A stretch of 57,039 nucleotides of DNA from Planctomycetota bacterium. GTDB taxonomy: Bacteria; Planctomycetota; UBA11346. Location of the stretch: the NCBI GenBank assembly GCA_038231435.1, contig JBBRLJ010000033.1, positions 1 to 57,039 of the forward strand. The letters run 5' to 3'. The position numbers were made by a program. Of the stretch, positions 30,001 to 42,000 are shown in pieces; position 1 is the first letter of the stretch; every line of letters starts with the position of its first letter.

Positions 30001-33000
30001 TGCTCGGCTTCGAGCCGGGCGATGTCGCCGCTGAGGAACAGGGTCCACTCGAGATCGCCGGTGGGCAGTCCCGGCAACGCCAAGGCCTCGTCGAATCGTC
30101 CGAGGTTGTTCAGCGCCTGGGCGCGGTGGCCGGAATCCTTCGGGAAACGCCTGATCACCTCCTCGAAACGTCCCATGCGCATCAGCGCACGCGCGACGAT
30201 GCTCTCCTGTTCCGCGCAATGCGCGAAGATGAAGGCGTAATCGCCGTAGCGCTCCAGCACTTCCGGGGCGGAGCTGGTGAACGGATTCTTGTCGAGCGAA
30301 GTCCCATAATCCTTCGCCCACCGCTCAAGCACGGCGTACTCCTCCTCGATGCGCCGCACGATGTCCTCGGGATATGGGAGATCCCCGAACACCACGGCGG
30401 GCGTGGCGCGCAGCATCGGCAGCTGCTCCTGCCCGATCTCGATCAGCACCTGGCGCAGGATGGGATGACCCTTGAATGCGATGAGCCCTGAACGGATGCG
30501 CGCCACCGCCTCCTCGGACTTCCCGGCCCGGGCGAGCGCTAGGCGTTCGTACATGGAGAACGGCACCAGCTCGTGGCCCTGGTACTCCTTCTCGAAATCC
30601 GCCAGCTTGCGCTCGGCATCCTCGCGGTGATTCCGGCGCGAAGCGCAGATGCCGAGCTTGAACAGCGCCTGCGGTCTGAGGCTGGTACCGGGATACGACG
30701 CGGCGATCTCGGCGTATTGCCGCTCTGCCTCCTCATACTGCTGGAGCTGGAAGAAGCGGTCGCCGACCTGGATCGGCGAGATGCGCTGCGCCAGGGACTG
30801 GTGGTAGACCTTGACGTTGTCGATCACCAGTCGCGAGTCCGAATAGGAGTCGAAGCCGAAGCTCTGCTCGATGGCACTGCCGAAGTCCTCGGCGTCGATG
30901 TAGTCGACGACGCGATGGCCGTCGATGAACAGGCGCACGTGGCGATCCTCGTGCTCCATCGCGAAGCGGTACACCCTGCCGACTGCGAGCGGACTCGGAC
31001 AGATGTCGTGGACCAGATGGATGTAGTTGTTCCCCTTGGTCAGCACCACGCTGGAGGGATCGCCGAAGCCTCCGACATGGAAGGTGAAGCCGTCCTCGCG
31101 GTTCCTGCCGGCCATGAAACAGTTGAAATTGCGGTTGTTCAGCTCTGACGAGTAGTCCCATTCGACGCGGATGTTGCCGCGTAGGCCCGGCACATACGCG
31201 ACGTCGACGATGGGTTTGCGGTTGCCGAGCTTCGGCACTGGCTTGTCGGTGGCGACGTGGAGCGCGCCATCGTGGACGGTGAAGAAATCGCCGTCGGTGA
31301 GCGGCGCATCGAAGAAGGTCATATTGGAGTTGTCGGTCCGGTAGCGACCGACCCAGTGTTCGGCCAGCGCTTCCGCCGGCCTGGAGAAGTCCTCGATGCA
31401 GACCGGACGCCAGACCGTGAGTTCCTTGATTTTGTCGATGGCGACTACCCCCGCGGCCGCGGCAACCAGCGACGCGGCCGCCGCGGAGATCCAGAACACC
31501 TTGGCGTTGCGTCTGTGCCAGCGCCTGAAGCGGCGCCACAGGGAATCGCGATGCACGCTGACCGCGAGACCGGCCTGGAAGCGCTCGAGGTCGCGCAGCA
31601 TGGCCTCGAGAGCGGGATAGCGGTCGCCGGACACCGGAGCCATCGCCTTGAGCGCGATCTCGAGCAGCTCAGCCGGCATCGCCGCCCGCTCGGCCTCGTC
31701 GGGCGGCGCGATATCGCCTCGCCGCTTCATGTTCCAGAACGCCTCCGAATCATCCGACCAGATCGGCAGCCTCAGGGTCAAGGCGTGGAAGAGGGTGGCG
31801 CCGATGCAGTAGATGTCGCTGGTCGCGTCCGAATGCTCCCGCCGCGCCTGCTCGGGACTCATGTACAGCGGCGTGCCGTAGATCCGGGTCCGCACCTTGC
31901 CATCGGCATCCATGCGCACCGCGCTCCCCCAGTCGAGCACCAGCACCTCGCCGAAATCGCCGAGCATGATGTTGTCGGGCTTGATGTCCTGGTGCACCAA
32001 TTTCTGGTGATGCGCATACGAGATGGCGTGGCAGACCGCGAGGATGGTACTGACCACCGAGTTGGCGGTGGCGATCTTGGCGTGCCTGGCGCCGGGTGAG
32101 GACTGGGCGATGACCGAGCCGAGCGAGCAGCCTTCGATGCGGCTCATGCTGAAGTACGGCTGGCCCTCCTCGGTGACGTCGATCTCGTGCACGGGCAGCA
32201 CGTTCGGATGCTGGAGCGAGGCGGTGATGCGCGCCTCGTCCACGAACCCGGTGACCTGGTCGTGATCGTCGATCAATTCGCGGTTGAGCACCTTGATGGC
32301 GACCTGCCGACGCAAGTTGCGATCGAGGACGGAATAGACCTCGCCGGTCGCTCCGACGCCCAGCAGGCTCTCGACCTGGAAACGCGCGTCGCCATCCGCC
32401 GAGGACGTGCCGCCACGGCGCAGGCGGCGCGTCACGTTGATGCCGTTGAGCCTCGGCCAGTCCGCGCCGGCGGGCGGTGTGGCCAGCGGTTCCACGCCGG
32501 CGGCGCTGAACTGCTCCGCCGACACCGTTCGTCCGTATGGACCGGTCGCGCGAGTATCGCTATCGCCCGGGCCGGCCCGTGGGGACGAGGTCCCTGCCTC
32601 AGGCTGGTCCATCCACGAGGATACCACGGGATCGGGCCCATGCGCAACGCTGTGGCCGATGAGCCCCATAGGTCGATCGATCGGTCGGTCGAGGGCTGAT
32701 GGGCTGATGGGCTGATGATCAGCTTGGCGGGACCAGCACCTGGACGGTCCCGCCATGGATCACTCGGTAGTGGCCTGGCCCAGCGATGAGCGGCTCGCCA
32801 TCGATCTGCATCGCCACCGCGTGGAGGATGTGCATGTCGACGCGGCGATGCGCGCCGAGCCGGTGGGCACGGCGGATCCCGCCCATCGCCAGGCCCATCG
32901 CCAGGCCGGCAGGCAGCGCGAAGGCGTCGAGCGATCCGTCGTCGGGTAGGATGCCCGACCCGAGCCGGGTCCCGCCTGCGTAGCTGGCGATGTTCGCCAG

Positions 33001-39000: not shown

Positions 39001-42000
39001 TCAAGGACCAGGTCCTCGGCCATGCGCAGAATTCAGAGGCAATCAAGACCAGCAAGGCGGCGCGCATCCTGGTCTACGTCGCGATCGTCGCGCTCGCGGC
39101 CACCGCCATGGTCTTCGGCTGGGAATATTACCACGGGCACGTCATCAAGCAGTACGGCGAGAGCAAGGTCAACGACTTCGAGGCCACTCTCACCAGTGGC
39201 ATGCAGTCCGGCCGCCATCTCCAACTGCTCGAGGAGCTCGACGATCTCAAGACCAAGTACGGGACCAACTCCGAGGTCAGCCGCCGCCTCGAGGAGCGCC
39301 GCACGCAGATCGAGAAGGACTTCGAAGCGCGCGCCGGCCTCGAGTTCCAACGCGCCGACGCCGCGCGCGAAGCCGGCAAGTACGAAGAGGCCGAGGCCAT
39401 CATCGGCGAGATGAAGGTGAAGTACCAGAACACCCAGTCGGCCTCGAACGCCGACACCATCCTCGAGGCCATCCACTTCGAGCGCATCAAATCGCAGGTA
39501 TCGACGAAGATGAAAGAGGCCGAGAGCCTCTGGAACAACCTCAATTGGGACGGCGCCATCGCCATCCTCCAGACCATCCTCGACCGTAAGGATCTGCCCG
39601 CCTCGCTGCGCGAGGACTACACGCGCTCGATGGCCGAATGGTCCGACGCATCCAAGAGCGCGCAGAAGCTCTACGAGCGCGCCCAGCGCTATGAACAGAA
39701 CGGATCGAAGCACGAGGTGCTCACCGCCTTCCGGCGCGCCGCCACCGGCCAGGGCGAGCAGTGGGCCGACAAGGCCCGCGCCCGCGTGCTCTCTATCGAG
39801 CTCGAGATGGCCCACGACCTCGGGAAGCTCGCCGCCGACGCCGCCAACCGTGGCGACGACCAGGCGACCTTCACCCAGGTGGACGAGCTTGCGACGCTGG
39901 CCAAGGAGGCCTCAGGCCGCACCGTCGGCGACTACTACGCGACGCTCGAGCTGCCCTTCACCCTGCAGATGGACAGCAACCGCGTGCAGCTCTCGATCAA
40001 GCGGCCAGGAGCCGAGGAGAGCCGTGTTTCGGCGCCCGCTGGCAAGCGCGGCAGCTGGTCGGAGCGGATCACCTACCGGGTCAACGAATCGGTCACGGTC
40101 GAGGCCTCGCGTCCGGGATTCTCGCCGCAGAAGTTCTCAATCGACGTGAAGGGACGCAAGACCCAGGCCGTGGTCTCGCTTTCACGCGGTTGGCGCTGGC
40201 GCACCGACCTGTCGGGAGCCTCAGCCACCCGCCCCATCGTCGCCCAGAAGCTGGTGCTGCTCGGCACCGACAAGGGCACCCTCGAGATGATCGACCCGGT
40301 GCTGGGTGCGAACCGCGAGGTGAAGTTCCCGAACAACATCGCCGAATTCACCGTCGCGCCGTTCGTCTACCAGGATCGCGCCTACGCGGTGCTCGACGAC
40401 CACGTCTTCGCGGTGGATCTCAACAGCCGCGTGCGGCTGTGGCAGTGGCCGCAGTCCTTGAACGCCCAGGACCGCCTCAACGGCCACCTGTGGGTCCAGG
40501 AGCACGAGATCAAGCCCGGCCAGCTGCTGGTGTTCGCGGCGACCATCAAAGCTGGCCTGCAGATCATCGAGGTCGACCCCACCGGCGCGACGCGCGCCTA
40601 TCCCAAGCTGGCGTCCGACGCCGACATCACCGGCGCTCCATTCGTCGACCATCCCGCCGGGATGTCGATCCTGTACGTGCCCGCCGGCACCAGCCTGATC
40701 GCCTACGACATCTCCGAGATCACCGAGCTCAGCCCGCCGCGCAAGCTCTACACCCTGCAATCCCGCGGCGATCTCATCGGCAAGCTGGTCAAGGCCAAGG
40801 TCGCAGACCGCGACTCGCTGATGGTCAGCGACATGTCCGGCGTGGTCATGGCGTTCGACTGCGACCGCAACGTGCCGGACAGCAAGCGCGTCGTCGCGGC
40901 CTGGCCGATCGACGGCACCTCGCCATCGACACCCGTGCTGCTCCCCGGCCAGCCGGTCGCATTCGTCTCGGTCGCCGAGGGGCGCATCGTGGCGATCGAT
41001 CTCGCGCACCCGGGCCAGCTGCTCTGGCGCTTCCCCGCCCAGGGCAGCTTGGGCACCCTGCCCGGGTCCCCCGCCATCGGCGCGCACGGCGTCTATATCG
41101 CCGATGGCAAGGGTCTGCTGCACTGCCTGGATCCGCTGACCGGCAGCGAGCGTTGGAAGGCCGATGTCGGCGGCGCCGCGGTGGGCGGCGTGTTGGCGTA
41201 CGACGGCCGAGTGTTCGTGCCCACCAAGGCTGGGCAGCTGGTCTGCTTCGAGGAAGGCGACGAATAGCCATCGAGGCCATCGCGCCCGATCGCCGGCAAG
41301 GCCTCCCCTCGCAACCATCGACTCGGTTGACCACGCCAATAATCCTGTCCGGACGTTACAAGACCCGTGCGTCTCATCCCGAAGTACTTGCGCCCAAATG
41401 CCTTCGGTGGTGTCATGCCAGGGTGCTGGTGGGCAACGCCACGGCTGAGATGCGGTAGAACATCCCCTGGAGCCGGCATGACGCGCAAGGGTTTCACGTT
41501 GATGGAGTTGCTGGTGGTGATCGGGATCATCATGATCCTGCTCGGCATGCTGTTTCCCGCCATGAACATGGTGAAGAAACAGGCGATGAAGACCAGGTGC
41601 CGGAGCCAGATCGCGCAGGTGACCGTCGCCTGCGAGCACTACCGCCTGCTCAATGGCGACTACCCCGACAGCCTCCTGATCAAGTCCACGCTGATGCCAG
41701 CCGCCACCCCGAAGACCGCCGACACCATCAGCGAGAGCGATTGGGTGGCCGTCGCCGGTGAACTTCTCCCGCTGCTCGCCAAGTCCGATCGCGATCCGTT
41801 CGGCGTGACCGGCTATTCGCTGCTGGACCCGTGGAAGGTCAAGGTCCTGCGCTACCGGCCGGTGAAGTATTATCCGTACCTCGCCGGAGCGCCGATCGCC
41901 ATCGACACCGACGCGCCGCCACATCCGGATTCGTTCCAGATCTGGTCGGCCAGCGCCGACGAGATCGACCAGCACGGCGACAAAGACACCGACGACATCA

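Follow-up and report, generated by a model that had tools for sequence, protein, structure and literature searches.

The window analysed here, the whole of contig JBBRLJ010000033.1 (57,039 nt; assembly GCA_038231435.1, Planctomycetota bacterium, GTDB Planctomycetota; UBA11346), encodes an MglA-type GTPase that ends in its own transmembrane (TM) helix and tail, together with MglB, two further Roadblock proteins and a PATAN-TPR-propeller protein. We lean toward reading this set as a tethered form of MglA/MglB, the Ras-like switch for polarity in bacteria, with a Roadblock set, a PATAN partner and a pseudopilin output, joined by a diacylglycerol kinase (DGK) that is specific to the host family, i.e., the family of the source genome. 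A first-pass annotation had placed a six-gene unit at 32719..41267 and read it as an MglA-type switch bound to the membrane and regulated by Roadblock proteins. All six genes and their domains are there at those coordinates, with a few refinements, and the MglA G domain, the identity of MglB and the conserved TM anchor bear out the proposal. The unit and its flank are as follows:

29268-32756, co-directional with the DGK gene: Ser/Thr-kinase gene, its start overlapped by the DGK 3′ end (an addition to the earlier description)
32719-33615, minus strand: DGK, 298 aa, GTG start; DAGK_cat at residues 4-117 (E 2.8e-18), DAGK_acc at 136-275 (E 1.9e-22)
33616..34015, unstranded: 400-bp intergenic region from which the DGK and TPR-Roadblock genes diverge, presumed to hold their two promoters
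34016-34876, plus strand: TPR-Roadblock protein, 286 aa; TPR at about 18-130, Robl_LC7 at 178-236
34876-35229, plus strand: small Roadblock/LC7 protein, 117 aa; Robl_LC7 E 2.9e-9
35270-36853, plus strand: GTPase, 527 aa; Arf E 8e-7
36853-37368, plus strand: MglB (third Roadblock protein), 171 aa; Roadblock/LC7 with C-terminal helix
37677-41267, plus strand: PATAN(DUF4388)-TPR-PQQ_2 protein, 1196 aa; predicted single-pass membrane protein

Two additional ORFs, at 34806-35303 and 37227-37610, were rejected as wrong-frame artefacts.

An MglA with a transmembrane anchor

The GTPase can be divided into four segments:

35270..35860, plus strand: MglA G domain, residues 1-197, from MglA matches and motifs
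35861..36364, plus strand: linker, residues 198-365, of low complexity and rich in Pro, Ala, Gly and Gln
36365..36433, plus strand: single TM helix, residues 366-388; Kyte-Doolittle mean 3.68
36434..36853, plus strand: tail past the helix, about 139 aa plus stop codon, rich in Ala, Pro and Thr and presumably periplasmic

The G domain matches MglA of Thermus thermophilus (E 4.7e-78) and Myxococcus xanthus (E 4.4e-73) over its full length and shares with them TVPGQ and the intrinsic Arg finger. Its motifs (P-loop GPGMSGKT, Arg53-Thr54, T78VPGQ82 and N141KRD144) are unchanged across 28 aligned sequences. Because they match the Group-1 hallmarks set out in the survey of MglA groups 1-5 (Wuichet and Sogaard-Andersen, 2014; PMC4316618), the G domain is, judged by sequence, a true Group-1 MglA. 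The survey left out sequences longer than 240 aa, and Planctomycetes are not named in its main text or in three of its supplementary files, file 1 not being among the three.

Topology was read from hydropathy and charge for both the GTPase and the PATAN protein. The GTPase linker contains 31 Pro among 165 residues counted, and a basic stretch directly precedes the TM helix. Among 8000 GTPase homologues scored, 6113 reach the threshold, and 114 of the best 120 listed carry a hydrophobic 19-mer (Kyte-Doolittle at least 2.0) equivalent to the TM helix; both counts reproduce the earlier ones. Among the closer homologues the tail is 17-160 aa long. Unlike the free cytosolic MglA of Myxococcus and Thermus (about 195 aa), this 527-aa protein continues past its G domain with linker, TM helix and outside tail, and pole-to-pole exchange through the cytosol should be impossible for an MglA anchored in this way.

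Among eukaryotic small GTPases, Ras, Rho and Rab have a hypervariable linker and a prenyl anchor, and SR-beta is grouped with the membrane-anchored members. The planctomycete protein resembles all of these in combining a G domain, a flexible variable linker and a permanent anchor, with a basic stretch adjoining the anchor, but unlike in Ras, Rho and Rab the anchor is a TM helix rather than a lipid, and the linker spans 100-250 residues. The G domain is of the MglA family and not of the Ras, Rab or Arf families. The likeness is one of analogy and not of membership.

Roadblock proteins

The third Roadblock protein matches M. xanthus MglB (E 5.7e-24, residues 12-169), and as with the Myxococcus and Thermus proteins generally the match is full-length and includes the C-terminal helix; its match to the MglB model (E 1.9e-18) lies under the NCBIfam curated cut-off. 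On these alignments we identify it as MglB. Its ATG overlaps the GTPase stop codon (TAATG), as that of the small Roadblock protein overlaps the TPR-Roadblock stop (TGATG). Adjacent mglA and mglB genes are shared with the Myxococcus/Thermus system, whereas we count as differences the order mglA-mglB and the presence in the unit of two additional Roadblock proteins and a PATAN-propeller membrane protein. The small Roadblock protein, whose matches are generic Roadblock structures only (E 6e-5), turns up in only about 5 of the 12 loci examined outside the host family, and the positional counterparts of the TPR-Roadblock protein in other families are 375-500 aa long. As in the Rag GTPase-Ragulator system, a small GTPase attached to the membrane is encoded together with several proteins that carry Roadblock domains; unlike in that system, matches to LAMTOR2 are non-significant (E 0.13-0.36) and the GTPase has neither a longin domain nor the Rag C-terminal Roadblock domain.

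The PATAN protein and the pseudopilin block

The PATAN protein begins with PATAN/DUF4388 (residues 4-168, E 1.5e-23) and TPRs (about 245-410); past its TM segment come a coiled-coil-like region and a PQQ_2/BamB-like beta-propeller that extends to residue 1192. The TM segment itself (about residues 464-482) had not been part of the first-pass annotation. In 9 of 12 proteins it is placed at residues 460-467, and in 8 of those 9 Lys and Arg are more numerous before it than after it; from hydropathy and charge we predict that the PATAN and TPR portions are cytoplasmic and the propeller periplasmic. Although the gene has gone from the MglA locus in several genera of the host family, an orthologue (at least 49% identity) is retained in 42 of 48 family genomes, even when unlinked. 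Like the cyanobacterial PATAN regulators of the PatA and PixG type, the protein has an N-terminal PATAN/DUF4388 domain and a gene linked to pilin-like genes; unlike them, it has no receiver domain, its PATAN domain being fused to TPRs, a TM segment and the predicted periplasmic propeller. In Synechocystis, the motor of the type IV pilus is reported to be bound by PATAN regulators, and PATAN genes occasionally lie near group 1 and 5 members of the MglA family (PMC4316618).

Downstream of the PATAN gene lies a pseudopilin block, in which the three Gsp-like proteins have an N-terminal methylation motif and match under the NCBIfam curated cut-off:

41367..50088, plus strand: pseudopilin block
41367-42017, plus strand: GspG-like protein
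41831-43339, plus strand: GspH-like protein
43343-48970, plus strand: giant protein, 1875 aa, hydrophobic at its N-terminus and without a match to any family
48967-50088, plus strand: GspJ-like protein

PATAN, pseudopilin and giant genes are co-conserved in 11 loci, while 8 DGK-bearing loci have neither PATAN nor pilin genes downstream. The contig holds no assembly ATPase or platform gene for the pseudopilins, and all 10 T2SSE genes of the genome sit on other contigs. The earlier suggestion that the switch might steer the pilin-like genes gains from the co-conservation of PATAN and pseudopilins in part of the family, but the output is not fixed, because the block trails MglB in only part of the family and other families have the module without pilin genes.

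The module in other planctomycete families

We compared 19 loci from 16 Planctomycetota families other than the host family, 18 of them with a complete MglA gene. A C-terminal TM helix ends MglA in 16 of these 18, mostly as a tail anchor with 2-10 residues outside; one further gene ends in an amphipathic C-terminus instead. MglB, TPR-Roadblock and PATAN-TPR-propeller genes adjoin MglA in these loci, the PATAN gene lying upstream, and the PATAN-TPR-propeller architecture includes a PEGA domain in 9 of 10 non-family loci scanned. The TM-anchored MglA module is thus the usual form in the 16 other families sampled, and a common one throughout the phylum. Three features set the host family apart: its DGK, a longer outside tail and the shift of the PATAN gene downstream, beside the pseudopilin genes. 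The anchored MglA had first been put forward as a new class; the anchor is real and conserved, but the unit is not special to the host family. A literature search found no published description of a TM-anchored MglA module in Planctomycetota.

A proposed tethered switch and its output

In the reading that we favor, a flexible, Pro-rich leash of about 170 residues would hold a catalytically complete Group-1 G domain in the cytoplasm, and since the leash ends in one TM helix, the switch would be confined to lateral movement within the inner membrane. MglB, translationally coupled to MglA, would serve as GAP, and the TPR-Roadblock and small Roadblock proteins, also translationally coupled, could form a second Roadblock platform acting as scaffold, GEF or GAP modulator. 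The PATAN protein would be the envelope-spanning partner, its PATAN/TPR half reading or setting the GTPase state and its periplasmic propeller providing a link to an outer-envelope structure. In the source genome the output may be the pseudopilin set with the giant, tip-like protein, and the module would then set the place and time at which a type IV pilus or type II secretion-like fibre is primed.

A rather unlikely but still credible alternative is that the module steers no pilus and instead sets polarity for budding, FtsZ-independent division, stalk or holdfast placement, or envelope remodelling, in the last case with outer-membrane and peptidoglycan changes sensed via the BamB-like propeller. 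The cross-family core (MglA-TM, MglB, TPR-Roadblock and PATAN-propeller) without pilin genes, the attachment of pseudopilins in only part of one family, and periplasmic PEGA and propeller domains that point to an envelope partner all speak for it. However, only 229 of the 401 genomes sampled have an MglA match (E <= 1e-20), and whole families lack one, such as f4 (0 of 20, complete genomes included), so that the module cannot be the universal division machine; moreover, the known MglA and PATAN systems act on type IV pili or gliding.

The diacylglycerol kinase

Like eukaryotic DGKs, the planctomycete enzyme has both DAGK_cat and DAGK_acc; unlike them, it is a 298-aa core without C1, PH or EF-hand domains, and the domain search found no C1 or other regulatory domain. 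It is probably a soluble, core-only lipid kinase, presumably acting on DAG. Homologue alignments open at residue 1, which supports the GTG start. Eukaryotic DGKs are again the best matches among longer homologues, with 28-32% identity over 91-99% of the protein and 33 invariant columns, including GGDG and P-x-GTGNDL-x-R. The label "eukaryote-type" given earlier holds by homology, but the protein lacks C1 domains and falls outside the eukaryotic clade (99% SH-aLRT) in a rapidly built tree with a single long outgroup as its root. Fibrobacterota, too, include bacterial clusters that carry DAGK_acc. DAGK_acc is, as first noted, common in the family: by six-frame search it occurs in 44 of the 47 other family genomes (48 with the source), compared with the 38 counted before. 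In the phylum sample (23 host-family genomes and 377 of other families), it is present in 23/23 and 4/377, respectively.

The DGK gene stands head-to-head with the operon and no more than about 2.5 kb from MglA in 31 of the 36 family genomes in which this could be determined, across 13 genera. In all of 29 loci, the gap to the TPR-Roadblock gene measures 146-400 bp. A consensus scan of 33616..34015 found no sigma-70-like site. Four non-family genomes have DAGK_acc (G066, G077, G280 and G320), and in the three for which the GTPase was also placed the two lie apart: G066 and G077 carry DAGK_acc on other contigs and have no DGK gene less than 7 kb from the GTPase, and G280 has it on a contig other than the GTPase's. 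The arrangement arose once, at the base of the host family, and was then retained. Because of this single origin, a coupling of the GTPase to DAG/phosphatidate turnover, for which the head-to-head arrangement is the evidence, is something that we only infer. We picture the DGK as a family-specific add-on, probably co-regulated with the operon, that would convert DAG to phosphatidate at the same membrane.

It is unlikely, in our estimate, that the DGK is instead a housekeeping lipid-recycling kinase whose place beside the operon stems from shared regulation or ancestral gene order, with nothing linking it mechanistically to the GTPase. Besides the single origin, such a role would fit the five family genomes that keep DGK and MglA apart (82 kb in G001, for example), another locus (L021) whose DGK and GTPase locus tags are about 60 genes apart on one contig, the presence of only one other DAGK_cat gene in the source genome, so that the DGK may carry general lipid-kinase duty, and its orientation there, co-directional with two Ser/Thr-kinase genes rather than with the operon. 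Against this, its linkage outlives that of every other flanking gene tested (the Ser/Thr kinases at the locus are conserved only in an identical contig, L003, the response regulator is conserved in none of the loci, and the PATAN gene has left the locus in several genera), and the gap stays tight.

Improbable, finally, is an integral signalling role, in which GTPase state and DAG/phosphatidate levels are under mutual control, for example through DGK-made phosphatidate that might bind the basic stretch next to the TM helix or bring in module proteins: the linkage persists while the gene past the DGK changes (at least 7 contexts) and in 8 loci without a linked PATAN gene, the homology to eukaryotic signalling DGKs is nearly full-length with catalytic motifs kept, and both proteins would act at the inner membrane, but the arrangement has one origin, 3 of the 4 non-family genomes have DAGK_acc away from the GTPase, the module works without such a kinase in other sampled families, and the DGK has no regulatory domains. 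If true, such mutual control would give prokaryotes an equivalent of lipid-coupled small-GTPase signalling.

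Gene organization of the locus

The window is contig C33 of a genome bin of 5.2 Mb (108 contigs, 87.6% complete). The sequencing runs listed for it comprise six of DNA, from three studies, and none of RNA. Its G+C content of ~67% makes for many spurious long ORFs; gene calls combined ORF lists with Pfam matches and G+C by codon position, and the ORFs at 34806-35303 and 37227-37610 were rejected because their Arg-rich translations mark a wrong frame. The unit consists of a diacylglycerol kinase homologue (DGK) read divergently from five genes:

Genes of the unit
32719-33615, minus strand: DGK, 298 aa, GTG start; DAGK_cat at residues 4-117 (E 2.8e-18), DAGK_acc at 136-275 (E 1.9e-22)
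34016-34876, plus strand: TPR-Roadblock protein, 286 aa
34876-35229, plus strand: small Roadblock protein, 117 aa
35270-36853, plus strand: GTPase (MglA), 527 aa
36853-37368, plus strand: MglB Roadblock protein, 171 aa
37677-41267, plus strand: PATAN(DUF4388)-TPR-PQQ_2 protein, 1196 aa

The 117-aa and 171-aa Roadblock genes both begin on the preceding stop codon (TGATG and TAATG, respectively), which suggests that each is translationally coupled to the gene before it.

The GTPase and its Roadblock partners

The GTPase has a complete MglA G domain: residues 1-197 match solved MglA over its whole length, with E 4.7e-78 for the Thermus thermophilus protein (residues 2-190), and the G domain matches the Myxococcus xanthus MglA structure with E 4.4e-73. 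The P-loop GPGMSGKT, Arg53-Thr54, T78VPGQ82 and N141KRD144 are all invariant in 28 aligned planctomycete G domains. The 2014 survey of the family describes as hallmarks of Group-1 MglA a TVPGQ G3 motif, as opposed to DxxGQ, and an arginine beside the G2 threonine (Wuichet and Sogaard-Andersen 2014, PMC4316618). The window GTPase shows the sequence traits of this group (P-loop and NKxD homology, TVPGQ and the intrinsic Arg) together with its coupling to mglB, the MglB homologue starting on the GTPase stop codon; it departs from the group's small single-domain form (150-240 aa) in being 527 aa long, with a linker, a transmembrane helix and a tail.

The 171-aa Roadblock protein (Robl_LC7, E 9.1e-12) matches M. 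xanthus MglB with E 5.7e-24, query residues 12-169 aligning with chain residues 5-159 and the C-terminal helix included, and from this match we assign it as MglB. Its score against the NCBIfam MglB equivalog, a model built on the Thermus type, is 67.1 bits, below the cut-off of 200. Matches of the 117-aa protein are limited to generic Roadblock structures (E 6e-5), and for the TPR-Roadblock protein the structure-match search returned TPR matches only.

A second MglA-like gene lies elsewhere in the same genome (G000, contig C17:92516-96832, corresponding to 4517-8833 of locus L069), and a match to it is present in most genomes of the window's family. In its product, a 48% identical G domain is joined in one chain to a zinc-ribbon-like stretch rich in Cys, part of a Pkinase domain (E 6.1e-9), one hydrophobic helix and ~700 more residues, and a T2SSE ATPase gene (C17:102391-103371) is found ~6 kb downstream.

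Predicted membrane anchors

Beyond its G domain, the window GTPase continues with a low-complexity segment of ~170 residues (of 165 counted, 31 are Pro), a basic stretch, a 23-residue hydrophobic helix with a Kyte-Doolittle (KD) mean of 3.68, and a tail of ~139 residues rich in Ala, Pro and Thr. The anchor is conserved: we reproduced both the number of homologues given in the first-pass annotation (6113 of 8000 scored proteins, in a search restricted to proteins of 289-923 aa) and its finding that 114 of the 120 listed homologues have a hydrophobic 19-mer (KD >= 2.0) past the G domain. T.PGQ is present in all 120.

The PATAN protein also contains one hydrophobic segment, at residue 464. Nine of 12 orthologues have it at 460-467, with an excess of Lys/Arg on the N-terminal side in eight of the nine; we infer a single-pass protein with the PATAN and TPR domains inside and the propeller outside.

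Distribution of the anchored module in Planctomycetota

Of 401 Planctomycetota genomes searched in six frames, 229 have a G-domain match at E <= 1e-20, with 78-100% identity within the window's family and 60-72% in other families; at this threshold some families had no match (family f4, for example, 0 of 20 genomes). For 19 genomes belonging to 16 other families, including some single-contig assemblies, the best G-domain match was retrieved together with its flanking sequence. In one of these 19 loci a contig end truncates the GTPase gene. Sixteen of the 18 complete genes encode a C-terminal hydrophobic helix (KD >= 2.0); beyond it there are just 2-10 residues in 15 cases and 28 in the other, and the proteins with this C-terminal helix are, as predicted from their sequences, tail-anchored. 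One further protein is borderline (KD 1.62). The GTPase of L060 (contig C30 of genome G066, 7001-7996) has a long linker and no transmembrane helix, and its basic amphipathic C-terminus resembles a membrane-targeting helix.

The five-gene set is conserved as well. An MglB-like gene lies directly downstream of the GTPase in 18 of the 19 non-family loci. A Pfam scan of the neighbours found a PATAN-TPR-(PEGA)-PQQ_2 protein of 1070-1220 aa in 9 of 10 loci (L063 has a large upstream ORF without a Pfam match), and in 9 of 10 the GTPase is preceded by a 375-500-aa protein of the TPR or TPR-Roadblock type, L055 being the locus without it. The ~120-aa Roadblock protein is present in some (four by Pfam, one more by tblastn). 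Given the tail anchors and the MglB/TPR-Roadblock/PATAN set in other families, the anchored MglA module is the common planctomycete form rather than a peculiarity of the window locus. The transmembrane-anchored MglA class with its Roadblock set, put forward in the first-pass annotation, is real as to anchor and gene set, although 16 of 18 non-family genes being anchored means that it is not special to this locus.

The 2014 survey of MglA excluded sequences of more than 240 aa, and its text and the three supplementary files searched make no mention of Planctomycetes (PMC4316618). In open-access papers and preprints we found no description of an anchored MglA, or of MglA in Planctomycetota.

Linkage of the DGK gene to the MglA operon

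In the window's family, the DGK gene is tightly linked to the operon. Of 44 related loci mapped by tblastn, all from Planctomycetota bins, 29 (one of them identical to the window) have the order DGK(-), then TPR-Roadblock, Roadblock, MglA and MglB(+); nine have no DGK despite enough upstream sequence, five are too short, and one has no GTPase. When DAGK_acc and G-domain places were combined for 48 family genomes, DGK and MglA lay within ~2.5 kb in 31 genomes of 13 genera and apart in five (82 kb in G001), and in 12 linkage could not be judged, a gene being missing or at a contig edge; all family relatives are metagenome bins, and, the genomes being kin, such counts do not represent independent cases. 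DGK and operon stand head-to-head 146-400 bp apart in all 29 loci, while the far side of the DGK shows at least seven unrelated gene contexts. These arrangements support the view that the linkage is kept by selection, and DGK and operon are probably under shared regulation. Across 28 loci the intergenic regions contain no clear conserved site that could serve as a shared operator: the most frequent 8-mer, GCCTTGAC, occurs in 12, and longer words are shared only by close relatives. Little can be read from consensus scans of 32500-42000, which gave no promoter-like sites and four terminator-like sites, against 4.1 expected.

The DGK is largely a trait of this family. Of the 47 other genomes of the family, 44 have DAGK_acc; in the phylum sample it is present in 23 of 23 family genomes versus 4 of 377 from other families. 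In three of these four it is on a contig other than that of the GTPase; for the fourth, G320, the GTPase place is not listed. The sole strong match outside the family, again on a different contig, is in G066, the genome of L060.

In nine loci (L007, L008, L011, L013, L023, L033, L034, L043, L044) the DGK adjoins a HEAT-like protein of ~200-260 aa with a hydrophobic N-terminus, followed by uvrC in all but L033; the window does not have this arrangement. In a divergent family member (G037:C25:337-1982), a G-domain match (65% identity) and a DGK match stand head-to-head ~250-650 nt apart, which leaves no room for two Roadblock genes.

One bin of another genus, G010, contains two copies of the module. 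A duplication was rejected: one copy is on a 49-kb contig (L003, G010:C38) identical to the window over the 21.6 kb fetched, through the giant gene (the 1875-aa ORF of the pseudopilin block), and the other (L043, G010:C55) has diverged. The identity makes a binning mix likelier, and the two copies probably reflect cross-binning between co-assembled samples.

Relationship of the DGK to eukaryotic DGKs

Both DGK domains exceed their cut-offs (DAGK_cat 66.2 bits, DAGK_acc 80.8 bits), and an alignment of 19 planctomycete and four eukaryotic DGKs has 33 invariant columns, including GGDG and P-x-GTGNDL-x-R. No C1 or other regulatory domain was detected (no further Pfam family at E <= 0.01). At E <= 1e-5 there are 269 homologues of near length; each of them contains the two domains, and the named ones are planctomycete. 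Every named match among longer homologues is a eukaryotic DGK, the best being an epsilon-like DGK of Planoprotostelium (32% identity over 93% of the query, E 1.7e-27). The solved bacterial YegS gives only a partial match (E 2.9e-6). Among the clusters listed by a language-model search, bacterial proteins combining DAGK_cat and DAGK_acc came from Planctomycetota and Fibrobacterota.

In a quick IQ-TREE analysis of 50 rows, the eukaryotic DGKs form a clade (99% SH-aLRT) that excludes all 18 family sequences; since the sole outgroup, the genome's other DAGK_cat gene, is a single long branch, the tree says only that a recent eukaryote-to-bacterium transfer is unsupported. The description of this protein as a eukaryote-type DGK fits its homology, two domains and catalytic motifs; it has no C1 domains, however, and in this tree is not nested among eukaryotic DGKs.

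The PATAN protein and the pseudopilin block

The PATAN/DUF4388 domain (residues 4-168, E 1.5e-23) has 10 columns invariant in 27 sequences. PatA and PixG have a receiver domain, whereas the window protein has no Response_reg match. A PATAN gene is 3' of MglB in 17 family loci (16 beside DGK-MglA-MglB, plus L046, which has MglB and no GTPase); eight loci with a DGK have none downstream. Of 48 family genomes, 42 retain the orthologue, which in several genera lies on other contigs. A predicted complex of the MglA G domain (28 rows) with the PATAN protein's N-terminal 250 residues (27 rows), with GTP and Mg, received a score of nil, evidence neither way.

Pseudopilins and the giant gene follow the PATAN gene in 11 loci. 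In the window they comprise three proteins with the prepilin-methylation motif (N_methyl, E 3.2e-6, 3.9e-4 and 4.5e-5) and the 1875-aa protein (43343-48970), which has a hydrophobic N-terminus and no family match. The best NCBIfam matches of the three, all below cut-off, are GspG, GspH/'Verru_Chthon cassette protein D' and GspJ. The 502-aa pseudopilin (41831-43339), which adjoins the giant gene, matches 'Verru_Chthon cassette protein D' weakly (E 1.2e-5, below cut-off), and the block may be related to this little-known cassette of the PVC group. Neither assembly ATPase nor platform genes were found in the locus, and none of the genome's 10 T2SSE genes is on the window contig.

Possible function of the module

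The known action of MglA, the model GTPase of bacterial polarity, requires that the protein be free in the cytosol and switch between poles. A transmembrane anchor rules out relocation of the Myxococcus kind, through the cytosol, so the nucleotide state of the anchored switch must be controlled within the membrane plane; anchoring throughout the phylum would mean a different use of the same switch. In our model, MglB would act as GAP, the TPR-Roadblock/Roadblock pair would be a second regulatory platform, and the trans-envelope protein would serve as effector or input through its cytoplasmic PATAN/TPR half. The output in the window genome could be the priming of a pseudopilin fibre, a proposal drawn from gene linkage, the known part that MglA plays in controlling type IV pili and the reported binding of Synechocystis PATAN regulators to the pilus motor.

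We consider it improbable that the following picture holds in full: that Planctomycetota MglA is a permanently anchored GTPase (G domain, hypervariable leash, anchor) under a Roadblock set, in the layout of eukaryotic Ras, Rab and Rag, and that a kinase sister to the eukaryotic DGK core was recruited to the switch in this family, coupling GTPase state to DAG/phosphatidate at one membrane site. Eukaryotic lipid-anchored GTPases share the membrane-anchored layout by analogy only. If true, the lipid-coupled reading would amount to a node of lipid-GTPase signalling in bacteria, by which an envelope-spanning machine is positioned.

Planctomycetota bud, in many cases have no FtsZ, and have a complex envelope; their cell biology is poorly understood. 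The defined partners (MglB, TPR-Roadblock, PATAN-propeller) offer a testable handle on polarity and the placement of surface structures, and the occurrence of the module in some single-contig assemblies suggests that genetic work may be possible. As a compact relative, in bacteria, of the eukaryotic catalytic core, the DGK could aid structure work and bear on the origin of eukaryotic DGKs.

Genes flanking the unit

Two large Ser/Thr kinase-TPR genes (25939-32756, minus strand) lie 3' of the DGK in the same direction, and the first (29268-32756, from its first ATG) shares 38 nt with the 3' end of the DGK; by tblastn of the related loci, they are kept beside the DGK only in the window-identical contig. 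Further out, a single 849-codon frame (23368-25917, plus strand) encodes a CoaE dephospho-CoA kinase (114-284) and then Rho RNA-binding and ATPase domains (476-787), either as a fusion or as two in-frame genes.
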